DNA of 64,000 bases from Candidatus Micrarchaeota archaeon (lineage in GTDB: Archaea; Micrarchaeota; Micrarchaeia; Micrarchaeales; CABMGC01), in assembly GCA_021792095.1 (NCBI GenBank), contig JAJYVH010000001.1, forward strand, positions 317,324 to 381,323. The letters run 5' to 3'. This document shows positions 2,576-61,119 of the stretch, piece after piece. Under the pieces are notes generated by a model. It saw only the letters and a list, made by a program, of their open reading frames with translations, did no database searches and was not told where the DNA came from. The translations under genes were made by a program, and so were the position numbers. The stretch's first letter is position 1. Each line of letters starts with the position of its first letter.

Positions 2576-2736
2576 AATTTCACGCGTGCCCTGTGGGTTT
2601 GTTATGGTATGCGCCTTTCGCCTTTTAAAGCATCCTGCTGTGCTTCGGGCCGGATCCAGATGCAAGCGCTAGGAGCGCAAGGTGTGTCCAAGCATATTAT
2701 AAAAAAACGTGTTCTGCGGGAGCAGAACCTGAAGCG

Positions 2737-2750
2737 CATCGCCCGAAGCA
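2737..2750 (+). repeat. att-like direct repeat, distal copy (CATCGCCCGAAGCA)
   Basis: Identical to 6655-6668. The extended alignment 2728-2750 vs 6646-6668 matches at 20/23 positions. Confidence 0.8.
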
Positions 2751-2894
2751 CAAGATGTGCGTGAGGCACATCTCCGACAAGAAGGATTTTTATACCGTCG
2801 ATTTTTAGCCTATTTTGGCATATAAGTGTGTATACCAGATATACATTCATTTAAATGAATTTACACGAGTGTATATCGTTTACATTCATGTATG

Positions 2895-3947
2895 TTATTT
2901 AAAGTATAGTGGGCGTGGGTGCTTGGGCGTGCGTGGTAGGTATGCGTATAGCACTATCGCACCCTTCTCAAGCCTTACGTTTATTCGTTTTATGGCATTT
3001 ACCTTTCCAGGAAGCTCGTTGTATATCTTGTTTCTAAGCGCCCTTGAAAAGGAATACTTGATGATGTCGTCGTCTTCGTAGCGCTCGGAGGTCTTCTTCA
3101 TTAAAGGTATTCTTTCCTTGTAGCTTATGCGTCCATTGGACTGCTTTAAGTTTAACACCTTCATGGCGTCTTTTGAGAGTTCCGCAGTATTTACACTGAT
3201 TTTTATTTTATGAGATGCAAGCTGAGGTTGTTTGAGAGGATGAGGCTTTCCATCCTTGAAGTTCATAAGTTTGTATTCAGTCTTCTTTTTGTTGTAGCTT
3301 GATCCCCAGTGCTCCAGTGACCAGATTGGCAGATGCTGGTCTAGCATGTATATCTTGCTCTTAATCCTGATTCCTGCTGCAACATGCCCAGGGGAGAAAG
3401 CAAAATATATCTCGTTCTTGACATACAGGTTTAAGAGCAGGCATGCTGTCAGCTTTGCATAATCTCTGCATACCCCTAGTTTATACTTTATAACCTTCTC
3501 AACAGGTAGGCTGGGCTGAAGGGAATACCAGACAAACCTGAATAATGTTACAACTTTGTTTTTATCTTCCAGGTTGAAGATATGCGTGTTCCATATTAGG
3601 AGCATGACGATTCCGATGAATGCTGACAAGAACATGCCAAATGTCAGGATAACTAGGTTCCTTATTAGATAGATATCTGCTGTTGAATAGATGGCAGGAT
3701 TAATCGGATGAAAAATTGTGAAGACAGCCCAGACGCAGAATATAAACAGGAACCCGAAGCTTATAATCAAAGACCAAGGAGCAAGGGGCCATCGCTCAGT
3801 CCAAAAGTATATGTTCTTGTCTTGCCACTCTAAAATATTAGTCAGTGTCTCTTTGTCTGAGTTACCTTTGAGCTTTTTGGCTAGGCGCATGACCTCCTTG
3901 TCCTTGAGTTCCTTTAAGGTTGGGTGATATCCAATATCCTTGTCCAT
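2895..3947 (-). CDS. transglutaminase-like (papain-fold Cys-His-Asp core) polytopic membrane protein
   Basis: 350-aa ORF in the AT-rich island. It has a central cluster of TM helices. GVCRDYAKLTACLLLN followed by PGHVAAGIRI resembles the transglutaminase-like core Cys and His. Confidence 0.55.
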   Translation of the reverse strand: MDKDIGYHPTLKELKDKEVMRLAKKLKGNSDKETLTNILEWQDKNIYFWTERWPLAPWSLIISFGFLFIFCVWAVFTIFHPINPAIYSTADIYLIRNLVILTFGMFLSAFIGIVMLLIWNTHIFNLEDKNKVVTLFRFVWYSLQPSLPVEKVIKYKLGVCRDYAKLTACLLLNLYVKNEIYFAFSPGHVAAGIRIKSKIYMLDQHLPIWSLEHWGSSYNKKKTEYKLMNFKDGKPHPLKQPQLASHKIKISVNTAELSKDAMKVLNLKQSNGRISYKERIPLMKKTSERYEDDDIIKYSFSRALRNKIYNELPGKVNAIKRINVRLEKGAIVLYAYLPRTPKHPRPLYFK

Positions 3948-4946
3948 TCATAACGCCCGTCTAATAAATTCGCATTTTTCTCCGAATACAGGATATCTAT
4001 CCATATCGACGAGGGTCTTTGAAATCTTACTAAACGATGTATCTATTTCTTTGTCCTTTTCTTTAATCTTACTAATTAAAGATTCGAGTTCTTTATTTTT
4101 GGCATTAGAAGGTTCCTTCTGTAAAGCCTCGAAGATCGCCGTATATTTCTCTGCCTTTTTCGGGTCGTTAGATATGGCTATCCCACCACTGAACGTGCCA
4201 TTATTTTTAGTTAAAGTGACTTGATATCCCTTTGCCATAGACTGAGTTTCTGGTATGCTCCAGTTCATTTCTTGAATTTTTATCTGTTGGCTCTTATCGA
4301 CGCCAGCCACATAACTAGAGAACAACGCATCAACAAACCAGAGATTTAATACATCTGTGCCTTTGTAGTTGTAATCGATTGTTGTTGACAGACCTGCTTT
4401 CTCGAGTTCTTTCATTGCAAGTTCTTCGATATACTTATGCAGGCCATTAAGCTGCTTCTCAAAATCGTTAACCGTTGTGCAGTAACTATTCCAGTCTCCT
4501 AACAGGTTTTTGTATTTCTCTCCTAGATGATTTTGTGTGAGGTCAGAGTATAGTATATCGTTATTGATATTTTCAGGAGCATACTGCGGTCTAGTAAAGT
4601 TTAATTCGTTTTTCTGGAACTGTGCGCCCATTAGCGGTATAATTTTATAATAAAACCCTTCATTTACACGTTTCCACTCGGCGATGAATTTATGCAGATC
4701 TTCAGAGTGCTTAATCTTAACATCCATAATCAAGGATTCGCTAGAGTAGTATATGCTGAAAGCCGCTATGATGAGCGCTGCCCAAGCAGGAATATCTGTG
4801 AACGGAATCAGACCTAGATACACAACTACTAGTAGTATGACAAAGGCGATAATGGCATAACTTATGTGTTTTGTTAAGAGTGTCATTGGTTTCTCACTTT
4901 TAAAGTAAAATGGTAGCCGCCATATTAATATGTGCACCCGAATCAT
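3948..4946 (-). CDS. hypothetical membrane-anchored protein (element cargo)
   Basis: 332-aa ORF with two N-terminal TM helices and a K/E-rich C-terminal coiled-coil-like tail. I recognise no family. Its ATG overlaps the PCNA stop (ATGA). An alternative start is at MTLLTK (4886). Confidence 0.5.
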   Translation of the reverse strand: MIRVHILIWRLPFYFKSEKPMTLLTKHISYAIIAFVILLVVVYLGLIPFTDIPAWAALIIAAFSIYYSSESLIMDVKIKHSEDLHKFIAEWKRVNEGFYYKIIPLMGAQFQKNELNFTRPQYAPENINNDILYSDLTQNHLGEKYKNLLGDWNSYCTTVNDFEKQLNGLHKYIEELAMKELEKAGLSTTIDYNYKGTDVLNLWFVDALFSSYVAGVDKSQQIKIQEMNWSIPETQSMAKGYQVTLTKNNGTFSGGIAISNDPKKAEKYTAIFEALQKEPSNAKNKELESLISKIKEKDKEIDTSFSKISKTLVDMDRYPVFGEKCEFIRRAL

Positions 4947-5700
4947 TCATCTTTGATGTATGGGGCTATGTAGTGTGCGAAGTCGACTCCGTCCATGTGA
5001 TAGCTGATTTTGAGGGGCTCTTTTGTAGTAAATTGGATGTTTACGGGCGTGTCCTTCTTCAGCACGGTGAGCATGCTTTCGATGAATCGGTGTTGTATCT
5101 AGAGGTTTGTTCCTGTGCGTCCGACTTCAGCTTTACCTCTATCCTATCGAATATCCTGCTGGACTCCTCTTCATCCCTTCCTATCGTTGTCAGCGTAAGA
5201 TTTTCCTTTGTTATTTGAAATGTTGTGTGTCCCTTTTTGCCTACCTTGATAAGTTCGTGGACGCTTTTCTGCAACAGCTTGCCATCAATCTCCGCTTCGG
5301 ACTTGAATGCAACACTCGGCTCCTTCTCCACATACCTTGTGACATTTTCTATTAGGACGCTGCCTACGTGTCCTCCGCATTTCAGATTTAATCTCCTTTT
5401 GCCGTCTTTTTCCAGCACGGTCGCAGTCAGTTCCTTGTCATTCGGCATACCTTCGATAAGCTTTGAAACCCTCTCCAAATCTATACCAAGCTCCTCAGGA
5501 CTGCCAAACCTGTACGAGATGAATTGCGCTTTTGGAATGCGAGCCACGATCATCGCTATTCCGCTTGACTCCATCTGCTTTATTTCGATGCCATTCATAT
5601 CGACCTTGATTAAGGCCTTCTTGTCCCTCCCATCATCTTTGAGGCTGACCGCTCCTTCGATCAGCTCCTTGAATGGCTGGGCGTTTATTACAAGGAACAC
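4943..5700 (-). pseudogene. PCNA-like DNA sliding clamp, interrupted by a 1-nt frameshift
   Basis: Frame A (5059-5700, GTG at 5698-5700) reads (M)FLVINAQPFKELIEGAVSLKDDG...IKVDMNGIEIKQMESSGIAMIVARIPKAQF...SRYNTD. A second frame (4943-~5086) reads FIESMLTVLKKDTPVNIQFTTKEPLKISYHMDGVDFAHYIAPYIKDE*. Together they match a full-length archaeal PCNA layout. Confidence 0.7.
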
Positions 5701-5713
5701 GGTGCCCGTATAA

Positions 5714-5787
5714 CTTATTCCATTCTCGGATTTTGAGGCTCTACTTATTCCATTTTGAGCAGGATTTTGGGCTGCGCTTATTCCATT
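5714..5787. repeat. three 11-bp direct repeats CTTATTCCATT (iteron/operator-like)
   Basis: Copies lie at 5714-5724, 5744-5754 and 5777-5787, spaced 30 and 33 bp apart. They sit between the integrase remnant and the PCNA GTG start. Confidence 0.7.
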
Positions 5788-5789
5788 TT

Positions 5790-6591
5790 TGGTAAGCTCG
5801 AAATAGCGGTTGGAGGTAGCTCCGTGGCCTATGACCCTAAGGAGCTTCCTTGCGGAGTCATCGGTCATAGGCTTATCCTTGCCCTTGCTACTGCCTATCT
5901 GCCTCTAGATTATCTGGTCGTCCCTTAAGTCCTTTATGGCATTCAGGTAGGTTACGGTCAGCGAGACTGACATAAGCAGCGGTACCTTCCTCCAGCCTGT
6001 CTTGCCCGTTATTGTGAGCTTCGCTGGCTGCACTGTCAGGTCTAAGTCTTTCTTCCTGACTCCCATTATCTCCCCTATCCTGCAGCCTGTTTCATATAAG
6101 AGGCTAAGGAAGAACTTGTCCCTGAGGTTTATGGCTGCGTCCAGCATCTTAACGATTTCCTGTTCCGTGAGTATGTTGTCTGGCATAAGGTTCTTTCTGG
6201 TTTTGTTCGTTATTTTCATCCAGGCTGTCACTGGGGGCTGATATACGCCCTCTCCCAACAGCTCCTTGTAGAAAACCTTCCAGACCGCCTGGAAATGGAG
6301 CCTGGATTCCATGCTATATGGCGGATCGCAGGAGTTTATGAACGCTGCGGCCTTTTCCATATCCCGTTTTGTTACCTCCTTTAGGTCTTTGTCATAACCT
6401 AGGGCCTCCATCAGCTTTAGAATGCCGTAAATATGCCGTATAACGCTACGTGGGTGCATATTCTTGGCCTTTAGCAGTGTTACGTGGTCTTCGATATAGC
6501 GCCTATTTTGCGCAATTATACGCACGTCAGCTAAAACCCTGTCATAGAGGCGGTTGGCCAGCCTTTGCCAATAGTCGATGTCGTTTGTCAT
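5790..6591 (-). pseudogene. tyrosine recombinase/integrase, decayed (in-frame TAG and missing catalytic region)
   Basis: ORF 5905-6591 carries the box I motif ETGCRIGEI and LTITGKTGWRKVPL, then stops at TAG. The same frame continues after 12 codons as ...DDSARKLLRVIGHGATSNRY, which resembles the LGH...Y C-terminal box. No HxxR box is present. Confidence 0.7.
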
Positions 6592-6654
6592 CGACGTGAC
6601 ATTGTGCCAGCGATGAATATTTATATCTTGTCCCGTAGGGGTCGTGCTTGAAGG

Positions 6655-6668
6655 CCATCGCCCGAAGC
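6655..6668 (+). repeat. att-like direct repeat, tRNA-proximal copy
   Basis: CATCGCCCGAAGCA. Positions 6658-6668 are the 3' end of tRNA-Asn. Confidence 0.8.
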
Positions 6669-6729
6669 AGGGATCGGACCTGCGACCTACTGGTTAACAG
6701 CCAGCCGCTCTACCGCTGAGCTATTCGGG
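6658..6729 (-). tRNA. tRNA-Asn(GTT)
   Basis: Manual cloverleaf: acceptor GCCCGAA/TTCGGGC, anticodon stem-loop GCTGG-CTGTTAA-CCAGT, T arm GCAGG-TCCGATC-CCTGC. No CCA is encoded. Confidence 0.9.
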
Positions 6730-6740
6730 CATGAAAAGGC

Positions 6741-27535: not shown

Positions 27536-28183
27536 GTGGACGAAATCAAGATAATAGCAGACAACAGGGAACGCAACCTCGACATACTGGAGGGCCTTTC
27601 GGGCTCGGGCATACTGCTGAGCTTCGCCCAGCTGCCAGTGGGCGACTACGTGCTTTCCGAACGGATGTGTGTGGAGCGCAAGACGGTACGCGATTTCGAG
27701 AGCTCAATAATCAGCGCCAGGCTCTTCGACCAGCTGGAGCGGCTCGGCGGAGCGTACGGTAAGCCCATACTCCTGCTCGAGGGAGACGACTCAGAGTTCA
27801 CGATGGGCCGGAACGTTATACTCGGCGCCATAATAAGCGTATACAGCGACTACAACGTGCAGGTGATAAGGTCCAAGGATTCCAAGGAGACAGTGAGCGT
27901 CCTGGCCAGGCTTGCGGAGAGGGAGCAGGGGGAGAAGCGTGTCCCGCGCATGCTGGGCTCGAAGAGGGCGTTCACGAACTCGCAGTGGCAGGTGCTCATC
28001 CTAAGCTCCATACCCGGCATAGGCCCGAAGCTTGCGAAATCGCTGATAAGCCGCTTCAAGACTATAAAGAACGTGGTGTCCGCGGAGCCGGACGAGCTTA
28101 TGAAAGTCGACAAGATAGGCGAGAAGAAGGCTGAGAAGATATACGAAATATTAAACGCTGAGTTCAGCGAAAGCGATGGTTGA
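27536..28183 (+). CDS. short XPF/ERCC4-type structure-specific endonuclease (nuclease domain + HhH2)
   Basis: GTG start. IIADNRE...GDYVL...VERKT ERCC4 motif, and a C-terminal IPGIGPKLAKSLI helix-hairpin-helix. Confidence 0.85.
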   Translation: MDEIKIIADNRERNLDILEGLSGSGILLSFAQLPVGDYVLSERMCVERKTVRDFESSIISARLFDQLERLGGAYGKPILLLEGDDSEFTMGRNVILGAIISVYSDYNVQVIRSKDSKETVSVLARLAEREQGEKRVPRMLGSKRAFTNSQWQVLILSSIPGIGPKLAKSLISRFKTIKNVVSAEPDELMKVDKIGEKKAEKIYEILNAEFSESDG

Positions 28184-60060: not shown

Positions 60061-61119
60061 CTAGACCCAGGAGCTCATTCCTTTCTGCCCCGCTGCAGAC
60101 CTGTATCCTACCAGCATGTCTGCGAACTTCGCGACCCTTTCCTTGGAGAAGCCGTGCTCCGTGCACATGAACCTGAGGAGCGCCTCCCTGTCTGGCTTTG
60201 CGTCCTTGAGCAGCGAGTTGAACTCGCCCTGCTCCATCTCCCTCACTTCGGGGTTCAGGAAAATTGACTCTATCTCCTCGGGGTCCGCCTCGAACGATGC
60301 GCCGTACTTGGCTTCCGCAGCGCTCACCACTTCCTGCAGGCTGCTCTTGTCCCTGACCAGCTTCAGCGCTGTCTTGGCCCCAACGCCAGGCACGCCTTCG
60401 TTGAAGTCTGTGCCGACGAGCATGCCGAGCCACACCAGCTGCTCGTGCGTTATGCCCAGGCCGGAGAGCAGCCTCTTCAGCTCTATGCGCTCCGGGCGTA
60501 TTTCTACGAACACGTTCTTCCTGGGCAGCTTGCGCCTGCCCGTTATCGTAAGGTTCCTCACCGCTATCGGCGAACCGAACAGGAAAAGGTCGTAGTCCTG
60601 GCTGGCGCTCGCATAGACGCGGCCGTCCGCAGCCAGCCTGGACGCCTGGGCCTCGCCCTCGCTGGGCGCCTGTATGTGCGCTATGCCCATAAGGTCCAGC
60701 AGCCTCTTCGAGCTCTCCACTATCTCCTTGTTTATCCTTGTGCTGGCCATGGCGTGCTGCCTCGCCTCCTCCAGCATGCCCTTCTTCAGCGCCTCGCTCC
60801 ACTCCTTTGCCGCCTCCTCGCGCCTCCGGACCCTGGCCTCTATTGTGCGCTGCTTGAGCGCTGGCGGCATGCCGTCGAATACGAAGACGGGCGTTATCTT
60901 GTGCTCGAGGAGGCTCGCGGTGCGGTAGAACAGGCCAGACAGGTGGCTGGTTGTGGCGCCGTTCTGGTCCCTGAGCGGCATGCCGTCCGGCCCCCTTATT
61001 ATCGACAGGAACTGGTAGATTGTGTTGTAAGCGTCGACAGCGATGATCCTGTTCGACAGCTGGTCGAGCGATATCTCCTCCTTGGCTCCTGCGACAAGGG
61101 GCCCGAGCTCTACGGCCAC
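60061..61119 (-). CDS. fen: flap endonuclease 1 (FEN-1)
   Basis: IAVDAYNTIYQFLSIIRG...TSHLSGLFYRT...PVFVFDG and H3TH GVPGVGAKTALKLV. Confidence 0.95.
   Translation of the reverse strand: MAVELGPLVAGAKEEISLDQLSNRIIAVDAYNTIYQFLSIIRGPDGMPLRDQNGATTSHLSGLFYRTASLLEHKITPVFVFDGMPPALKQRTIEARVRRREEAAKEWSEALKKGMLEEARQHAMASTRINKEIVESSKRLLDLMGIAHIQAPSEGEAQASRLAADGRVYASASQDYDLFLFGSPIAVRNLTITGRRKLPRKNVFVEIRPERIELKRLLSGLGITHEQLVWLGMLVGTDFNEGVPGVGAKTALKLVRDKSSLQEVVSAAEAKYGASFEADPEEIESIFLNPEVREMEQGEFNSLLKDAKPDREALLRFMCTEHGFSKERVAKFADMLVGYRSAAGQKGMSSWV

Follow-up and report, generated by a model that had tools for sequence, protein, structure and literature searches.

Near one end of a 64,000-nucleotide window of Candidatus Micrarchaeota DNA (contig JAJYVH010000001.1, positions 317,324 to 381,323; by the window we mean this whole stretch, and coordinates are counted from its first letter), a gene for a PCNA-like sliding clamp lies on the minus strand in two pieces, within a short island beside a tRNA-Asn gene. 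An earlier note, made from the sequence alone, had recognised a PCNA-like gene on a mobile element that is split by a 1-nucleotide frameshift, and the analysis below supports all three of these points, although the gene proves to be the relic of a longer one. The PCNA-like pieces and the features around them, including the remnant of a winged helix-turn-helix (wHTH) domain, are as follows.

4943 to 5086, minus strand: C-terminal PCNA-like piece in the -1 frame (FIESMLTVLKK...YIAPYIKDE, then stop), from its translation and comparison with the homologue P0001 and Pyrococcus furiosus PCNA
5059 to 5700, minus strand: PCNA-like domain 1, interdomain loop and most of domain 2 (Pfam PCNA_N, alignments with PCNAs in the PDB, 87% identity to P0001)
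5084 to 5088, minus strand: frameshift site, plus-strand GAATC against GAATTC in the intact relative L002 (1-nucleotide deletion)
5701 to 5823, minus strand: wHTH remnant (wing) and linker, with three 11-nucleotide repeats AATGGAATAAG encoding (K/Q/E)NGIS
5824 to 5837, minus strand: in-frame deletion junction, a 14-nucleotide microhomology GGGTCATAGGCCAC common to the integrase and wHTH-PCNA-like genes (BLAST against L003, parent and junction sequences)
5838 to 6591, minus strand: front of a tyrosine integrase, about 256 codons (408 amino acids in relatives; Pfam Phage_integrase, comparison with L003)
6649 to 6731, minus strand: tRNA-Asn(GTT) at 6658-6731 (ARAGORN) with the proximal att-like repeat, 6649-6669, on its 3' end (repeat search)
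3948 to 4886, minus strand: 312-amino-acid gene of unassigned function and conserved downstream partner of the clamp gene (74% identical, along its full 312 residues, to L003 11094-12032)
2895 to 3947, minus strand: DUF553/transglutaminase-like protein of 350 amino acids, intact cargo (Pfam DUF553, E 1e-21)
2730 to 2750, no strand: distal att-like direct repeat (TGAAGCGCATCGCCCGAAGCA) at the far end of the island, matching 6649-6669 at 19 of 21 positions

The main minus-strand open reading frame (ORF) extends from ATG 5868 through an in-frame GTG at 5700-5698 as far as TGA 5061-5059, and its translation ends in SRYNTDSSKACSPC, that is, with the C-terminal stretch AQEQTSRYNTDSSKACSPC. The -1 frame reads FIESMLTVLKKD...APYIKDE, in full FIESMLTVLKKDTPVNIQFTTKEPLKISYHMDGVDFAHYIAPYIKDE, and closes at TGA 4945-4943. 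When one base is added in the minus-strand GATTC (GAATC on the plus strand, 5084-5088) a single ORF of 252 codons results, counted from the GTG, as the earlier note had proposed. The protein repaired in this way is 87% identical to P0001 over the whole repaired length, and its residues 6-248 align with residues 9-246 of P. furiosus PCNA (1iz4/1ge8; E 8e-10) in an alignment that crosses the repair site unbroken. In the Pfam hidden Markov model (HMM) check that the earlier note had suggested, PCNA_N was matched at 24.2 bits against a threshold of 20.3, whereas PCNA_C was undetected in the repaired protein. The C-terminal piece itself is 87% identical to residues 299-345 of P0001, also aligns with the C-terminus of P. 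furiosus PCNA, and comprises helix αB2, strands βG2-βI2 and the C-terminal tail, as positioned on the model of P0002 described below. A tblastn search gave no second PCNA-like locus in the window. The stretches 5700 to 5059 and 5086 to 4943 are confirmed as two pieces of one PCNA-like gene and are no chance juxtaposition of ORFs.

For a structural check we took P0002, a homologue of 252 amino acids (81% identity to the repaired window protein) that has the PCNA-like domain and nothing else. Its AlphaFold2 model, built from a 72-sequence alignment, has a predicted local distance difference test score (pLDDT) of 94.4 and a predicted TM-score (pTM) of 0.91, and shows the two similar domains and interdomain loop of a PCNA protomer. 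When the model was compared with the PDB by Foldseek, the top 50 matches were all PCNAs (TM-score 0.80-0.87), the best being those of P. furiosus, A. fulgidus, T. gammatolerans, yeast and human (TM-score 0.82-0.87, rmsd 2.2-3.0 Å). Mapped onto the model, the frameshift coincides with the beginning of helix αB2; without αB2, βG2-βI2 and the tail, the truncated product cannot form a complete second domain. The uninterrupted coding sequence expected of a working clamp is absent from the window copy.

The closest intact relative, L002, is 89% identical to the window in DNA. At the shift site the window has the codons ACC GAT TCA TCG and L002 has ACC GAA TTC ATC, and the aligned lengths are 891 and 892 nucleotides, a deficit of exactly one base. 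The earlier note had placed the missing base in the AA run at 5085-5086; judged by L002, it is more likely that one T of the plus-strand GAATTC, at position 5087, was lost, and the restored residue would therefore be E, not D. All 13 of the aligned database homologues are uninterrupted over the junction. The exact 269-amino-acid chimeric ORF that the frameshift creates was found on 11 contigs (it is identical across the retrieved assemblies simply because the look-up was by exact match), and L001 and L017-L021 likewise show the GAATC motif. We examined five assemblies, which came from two assembly sources and different samples; the frameshift, the deletion junction and a TAG nonsense codon (both described below) are present in every one, and two of the five diverge from the window by 1-1.5% elsewhere. 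L001, a JGI contig that is 99.8% identical, has the frameshift together with an intact upstream wHTH and no deletion. Because L001 carries the frameshift without the deletion, the frameshift arose first. The ratio of nonsynonymous to synonymous substitution rates (dN/dS) between the window and L002 is 0.13, similar to that among intact members, and the inactivation is therefore recent relative to their divergence. A comparison of polymorphism between the relic and the intact cargo across strains was uninformative, as the contigs had been retrieved by exact protein identity. Of the three explanations offered by the earlier note, genuine decay, a homopolymer sequencing error and a programmed frameshift, it is the first that holds: the same frameshift is present in at least six independent assemblies, from which we conclude that the gene has truly decayed and that the lesion is fixed in the lineage.

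A sequencing or assembly error, with the organism really having an intact clamp gene, is extremely improbable: the break is a single base within a dinucleotide run, and the copies in L009 and L010, from two related metagenome-assembled genomes (MAGs) with low coverage, are likewise broken by single bases, but the identical lesion occurs in L001 and the five assemblies (different samples, assemblers and strain variants), a 2-nucleotide run is not prone to such errors, and the frame-restored gene would still lack a start and a wHTH domain and be fused to a nonsense-bearing integrase fragment. It is scarcely more credible that a programmed -1 ribosomal frameshift, or a deliberately split gene, gives a full-length or two-piece clamp, for although both pieces are open and well conserved and the broken allele persists in several strains, the site C-GAT-TCA-TCG contains no slippery X XXY YYZ heptamer, the shift occurs in none of the 13 homologues (including the one that is 89% identical in DNA), the dN/dS of 0.13 fits recent inactivation, and the upstream part of the gene has been destroyed too.

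What happened upstream can be seen by comparison with L003/L008 (DAHWXM010000006.1), an intact element relative at the syntenic site in a Candidatus Micrarchaeota MAG. Here an integrase gene (408 amino acids) is followed by a type I restriction-modification system, a gene for a 142-amino-acid ribbon-helix-helix (RHH)-like protein, a wHTH-PCNA-like gene, the 312-amino-acid gene and others. BLAST aligns the window with L003 in the following blocks.

Window 6785-5824 with L003 1638-2585 (integrase), 90% identity
Window 5837-3961 with L003 10143-12019, 75% identity
Window 2933-2727 with L003 14692-14898, 86% identity (end of the intact element)

The first two blocks overlap by 14 nucleotides, and this sequence, GGGTCATAGGCCAC, is near-identical and in the same reading register in both parents. 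Because the overlap is common in register to the two parent genes, we conclude that a deletion of about 7.5 kb joined codon ~256 of the integrase, with the frame preserved, to codon ~50 of the wHTH-PCNA-like gene. The deletion took the catalytic half of the integrase, the type I restriction-modification system, the 142-amino-acid RHH-like gene, the promoter and about 50 wHTH codons. The head of the long ORF is accordingly a chimera in which integrase ...LLRVIGH is joined to wHTH GHGATSNRY, and MTDDSARKLLRVIGH at this head is integrase sequence; LLRVIGHGATSNRY, also at the head, was considered as the catalytic Tyr motif of the integrase and rejected by comparison of the junction with L003 and L001.

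Of the wHTH domain the window copy retains only the last ~15 residues (GHGATSNRYFELTKNG), and it is without its own promoter, start codon and some 50 first codons. Three details of the earlier note do not survive these comparisons. GTG 5698-5700, taken as the start, is an internal Val codon (NVFLVIN) of the longer gene; the clamp is not a stand-alone protein of 252 amino acids, the intact relatives being wHTH-linker-PCNA-like fusions of ~345 amino acids; and the overlap of its TGA with an ATG of the next gene (4943-4946) is incidental, since alignment with homologues begins at M21 of the 332-amino-acid downstream ORF, so that this gene starts at ATG 4886-4884 and encodes 312 amino acids like its homologues.

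The element is damaged too. The ORF of the integrase that adjoins the tRNA gene covers 5905-6591 and ends with a nonsense change, TGG to TAG at 5907-5905, at a codon where L003 has TGG. The Pfam Phage_integrase match spans only profile positions 2-75 of 172, and the HxxR and Tyr catalytic motifs are absent; L003 reads NPHAFRKAR just past the junction. An integrase at a tRNA 3' end, border repeats (with a 14-nucleotide exact core, BLAST E 2e-4) and a deviant composition (GC 39-47% between ~2700 and ~6700 against 57-60% around) are all present, as in elements that target tRNA genes through a tyrosine recombinase; the complete R...HxxR...Y integrase that mobility needs is lacking. Three lesions, the 1-nucleotide deletion, the ~7.5 kb deletion and the TGG to TAG change, inactivate the gene and the element, and the island at 2730-6669 (~3.9 kb) is an immobile fossil of an element integrated at tRNA-Asn. 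We therefore regard the window feature, with high confidence, as a pseudogene: what is left, in a mobile element that has decayed, of a wHTH-linker-PCNA-like fusion gene. It derives from the fusion family by truncation and is no intact member; the window copy is non-functional, and the split of the clamp is ordinary decay. The copy documents how such an element decays, with a microhomology deletion, a nonsense codon and a frameshift fixed in the lineage.

Within the fossil, the 312-amino-acid and DUF553 genes are intact and 74-85% identical to their homologues in active-looking elements, with 85% identity between the window DUF553 gene and its L011 counterpart, which comes next after the wHTH-PCNA-like gene there. 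The host may have kept these two genes after the death of the element. Differences between strain variants cluster in DUF553 and at the end of the element.

The intact family was delimited by several searches. One of 5.8 billion proteins returned 15 relatives, 10 of which have 342-350 amino acids and precomputed MarR/HTH_5/HTH_24 hits at the N-terminus. Their architecture is a wHTH domain at residues ~1-70, a linker of ~25 amino acids with three (N/S)GIS repeats, and a PCNA-like module at ~96-345 that ends in YYLAPYIEDE. Profile scans matched ArsR/MarR-type HTH models to P0001 at residues ~2-72 and Pfam HTH_5/MarR_2 to the distant member P0016 at residues 5-59, and the linker repeats are kept in all full-length homologues except P0016. 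The window copy has the three-repeat linker followed by a colinear PCNA-like module with the YYxAPY(I/M)E tail and, as in L003, L011 and L012, lies in an integrase-bearing island ahead of a 312-amino-acid or DUF553 gene; its N-terminal MarR/ArsR-type wHTH has been deleted. When 1.84 billion representative proteins were searched exhaustively with an HMM, the full-length fusions amounted to only a few clusters (P0012, P0016), accompanied by fragments and followed by ordinary PCNAs from E 1e-29 downwards; among 185,579 species, each represented by one genome, three loci turned up, all in Candidatus Micrarchaeota MAGs. There was no family match in IMG/VR, and neither a DNA-pattern scan across the frameshift nor a protein-pattern scan found anything in JGI metagenome contigs.

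The fusion gene always lies within integrase-bearing islands, the cargo of which is variable: L003 (3400-9301), L011 (949-7168) and L012 (1532-7974) carry different defence genes around the same backbone. The kinds of cargo are type I restriction-modification; an MmeI-like type IIG enzyme with a C5 methylase, HerA/DUF87 and PD-(D/E)XK; SLFN/AlbA_2, a protein that matches Argonaute-associated PADLOC models; and PIN. In appearance these are mobile defence islands of DPANN archaea. The fusion gene of the most divergent member abuts the integrase. No recognisable replication gene was found in the elements, and proteins of 623, 381, 312 and 231 amino acids matched nothing in the PDB, Pfam or PHROGs.

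Values of dN/dS among intact members are 0.07-0.23, and the family is therefore under purifying selection; diversifying selection on the fast-diverging PCNA-like part was considered and rejected on the same values. A sharp mosaic boundary lies inside the gene at L003 9961-10285 (the surviving part corresponds to window 5701-5837). From ~40 nucleotides 5' of the ATG to codon ~95, covering wHTH and linker, third-position identity is 80-93% and dS 0.2-0.5, whereas from the first PCNA-like codon onwards third positions are ~50% identical and dS is 1-4.3. Since it is in dS that the PCNA-like part departs from the conserved 5' block, we read the difference as mosaicism, which suggests module-swapping recombination at the domain junction.

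The linker-coding repeat deserves separate mention. Exact copies of AATGGAATAAG lie at 5714-5724, 5744-5754 and 5777-5787; the window as a whole has four matches at no more than one mismatch, against 0.45 expected, and the three exact ones are all within 5701 to 5823. The possibility that the repeats are iterons or operators was rejected, as in every locus they occur only in the linker-coding stretch of the fusion gene and are absent elsewhere in the elements and the window. Most probably the DNA here simply mirrors a repeated peptide.

Several other copies and relatives were noted in passing. In L009 (2060-2075) a 1-nucleotide deletion (CTGGCCCCG to CTGCCCCG) lies in the last eight codons and truncates the APYIEDE tail, and the copy in L010 (10001-10524) is without residues 1-173 and changes frame near codon 318; these MAGs have ~2× coverage and their lesions could be errors. 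The 142-amino-acid gene (L003 9305-9733, deleted in the window) has an RHH-like N-terminus resembling RelB, CopG and RepB regulators, is transcribed divergently from the fusion gene in intact elements and, as a conserved module of its own, moves separately; in L011 four genes intervene. The closest PCNA without an HTH domain is P0021 (L015 1108-1869; 253 amino acids, E 1e-29, tail YYLAPYMET), which sits among ~19 small same-strand ORFs with almost no Pfam hits on a contig that looks viral. The PCNA-like module may derive from a clamp lineage borne by mobile elements, not from a host gene. P0022, P0026, P0035 and P0073 are otherwise ordinary PCNAs with Lys/Glu-rich low-complexity N-terminal extensions of 100-380 amino acids and P0125 is a PCNA carrying a DUF6884 domain; such N-terminal additions are apparently more frequent in PCNA than is generally supposed.

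The intact proteins retain much of what characterises a clamp. Positions G37, D44, F60, P128, P229, A246 and P247 (P0002 numbering) are kept in 11-14 of 14 family members, and the family keeps all positions that are at least 90% conserved among 72 PCNA-like sequences. Among the retained residues are the interdomain-loop Pro, the domain-2 Pro and the C-terminal Ala-Pro, which line the groove in canonical PCNA. NCBIfam archaeal sliding-clamp models match residues 97-345 of P0001 end to end (E 5e-25) at 88 bits, against cut-offs of 207-293, and the PCNA-like module is, by these profiles, a homologue and not an orthologue of the archaeal clamps. The four channel helices have a net charge of ~+2, compared with +0.5 in ordinary PCNAs, and the whole PCNA-like domain ranges from -4 to +4, compared with a mean of ~-10 in 58 ordinary PCNAs; this shift might mean direct DNA affinity or an altered subunit interface. 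Helix αA2 carries +3 and is slightly negative in ordinary PCNAs. An invariant F-D in strand βD2, together with the net positive channel helices, gives indirect hints of ring formation.

For the intact members, the most economical reading of these features is an element-targeted, clamp-like recruitment platform, which we hold tentatively. Copies of the PCNA-like module would come together as a ring or platform of the clamp type, predicted still to bind clients with a PCNA-interacting peptide (PIP) box. Through its flexible linker, the wHTH would hold or direct this ring or platform to a particular site in the DNA of the element, which would bring the host's polymerase and flap-processing enzymes to an element that has no recognisable replication protein. 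In its fullest form, which we consider possible but doubtful, the proteins would be sequence-targeted clamps, PCNA-type rings with up to three wHTH domains on flexible linkers that mark element DNA and bring host PIP-box enzymes to it.

Nothing of substance speaks against the window copy being a relic, although the 269-amino-acid fragment may still be expressed. A number of points weigh against our interpretation of the intact proteins: the alignment behind the P0002 model contained ordinary PCNAs; in a full-length model from a shallow alignment of 13 sequences the wHTH alone, a three-helix bundle with a β-hairpin wing, was confident and the overall pLDDT was 41; the residues of the P. furiosus trimer-interface ion pairs are not conserved in the alignment; no repeated candidate binding site was found; a scan of the element proteins gave no convincing terminal PIP box; and wHTH domains of the MarR/ArsR type are typical of plain transcription regulators.

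The main alternative, likewise possible but doubtful, is that the intact protein is a plain element regulator, repressing the integrase, excision or cargo, with the PCNA-like module serving only as an oligomerisation ring. The N-terminus is indeed a wHTH of MarR/ArsR/Csa3 type, intact elements pair the fusion gene divergently with the 142-amino-acid RHH-like gene, and in the most distant member it stands against the integrase. PCNA-fold proteins do act in transcription, examples being gp45, which serves late transcription in T4, and poxvirus G8, a protein predicted to be PCNA-like. However, all universally conserved PCNA positions are kept, including the loop Pro, the domain-2 Pro and the A-P tail, as are the positively charged channel helices, and an oligomerisation scaffold would not need these. 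An action against the host or in conflict between elements, as a decoy or poison subunit, by titration of PCNA clients or as a sensor for the defence cargo, is improbable. The islands are rich in defence genes (type I, MmeI-like, SLFN/AlbA_2, HerA, PIN, PD-(D/E)XK), divergence is much greater in the PCNA-like part than in the wHTH part, and the domain is near neutral where ordinary PCNAs average -10; yet no PADLOC defence model was matched beyond generic wHTH, the gene is conserved while the defence cargo varies, which makes it backbone rather than cargo, and the low dN/dS indicates old divergence and recombination, not an arms race. It is because the gene behaves as backbone under purifying selection that we rate a conflict role as less likely.

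Two potential clamp clients are encoded elsewhere in the window.

27536 to 28180: short XPF (ERCC4 and HhH)
60064 to 61119: FEN-1 (XPG_N/XPG_I)

The earlier note was right about their presence, whereas the functional link that it drew to the clamp falls away: they are ordinary chromosomal genes, 22 and 55 kb from the relic, and as the relic is dead it cannot serve either of them. The C-terminus of the host FEN-1 is a PIP box, QKGMSSWV. The linker repeat (S)QNGIS(RAS), at window 5714-5792, resembles the first half of this motif (Q-x-G-[IM]-S) without its aromatic pair; it is conceivable from this resemblance that the linker acts as a pseudo-PIP box docking on the protein's own groove, and coincidence is equally possible.

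Should the recruitment platform prove correct, it would provide a replication or maintenance module for an integrative element that has no replication genes, and would answer how a stand-alone clamp encoded by an element tells its own DNA from that of the host. The role of the extra PCNAs of archaeal viruses and elements is unclear for just this reason: a clamp cannot recognise its own genome, and Kazlauskas et al. ask what stand-alone viral clamps do when they cannot tell viral from cellular DNA (PMC4889955). A backbone family that joins a DNA-binding domain to a complete PCNA-like module offers a concrete test of the question. The elements belong, moreover, to the Micrarchaeota (DPANN) and bear varied defence cargo; we found little in the literature on the mobile elements of this group.

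As a fossil, the island resembles other decayed tRNA-integrated elements with a truncated tyrosine integrase in its tRNA 3' end, border repeat, deviant GC and lesions, and is special only in its in-frame integrase'-'PCNA-like chimera. The N-terminal ~70 residues of the intact family match HTH_5, MarR, MarR_2 and HTH_24, as MarR/ArsR regulators do; those regulators, however, dimerise through their own helices and have no clamp, whereas here a single small wHTH sits on a PCNA-like body. With canonical archaeal PCNA (P. furiosus 1GE8, A. fulgidus 1RWZ) the family shares the two-domain fold (TM-score 0.85-0.87), a colinear full-length alignment and the conserved G, D, F, P, P and A-P positions, and it differs in having 18-20% identity, a charge of ~0 against ~-10 and an added N-terminal DNA-binding domain. 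The full-text literature that we searched contained no description of a wHTH–PCNA fusion, which is no proof of novelty; the family is apparently small and undescribed. Its nearest counterparts are the extra 'shell' PCNA copies of archaeal integrated elements, such as PCNA2 (TK0582) of TKV3 in Thermococcus kodakarensis (PMC3914693), and the PCNAs of haloarchaeal tailed viruses documented as PCNA-only (bioRxiv 10.1101/2025.02.15.638363), copies that are thought to recruit the host replisome (PMC3914693; bioRxiv 10.1101/2025.02.15.638363; PMC4889955). The shared feature is an extra, divergent, non-core PCNA on an integrase-type element or virus without its own polymerase. In contrast to these plain clamps of ~250 amino acids, the family described here was found only in Micrarchaeota MAGs, scores 88 bits against an orthologue cut-off of 207, and adds an N-terminal wHTH and a repeat linker to the clamp.

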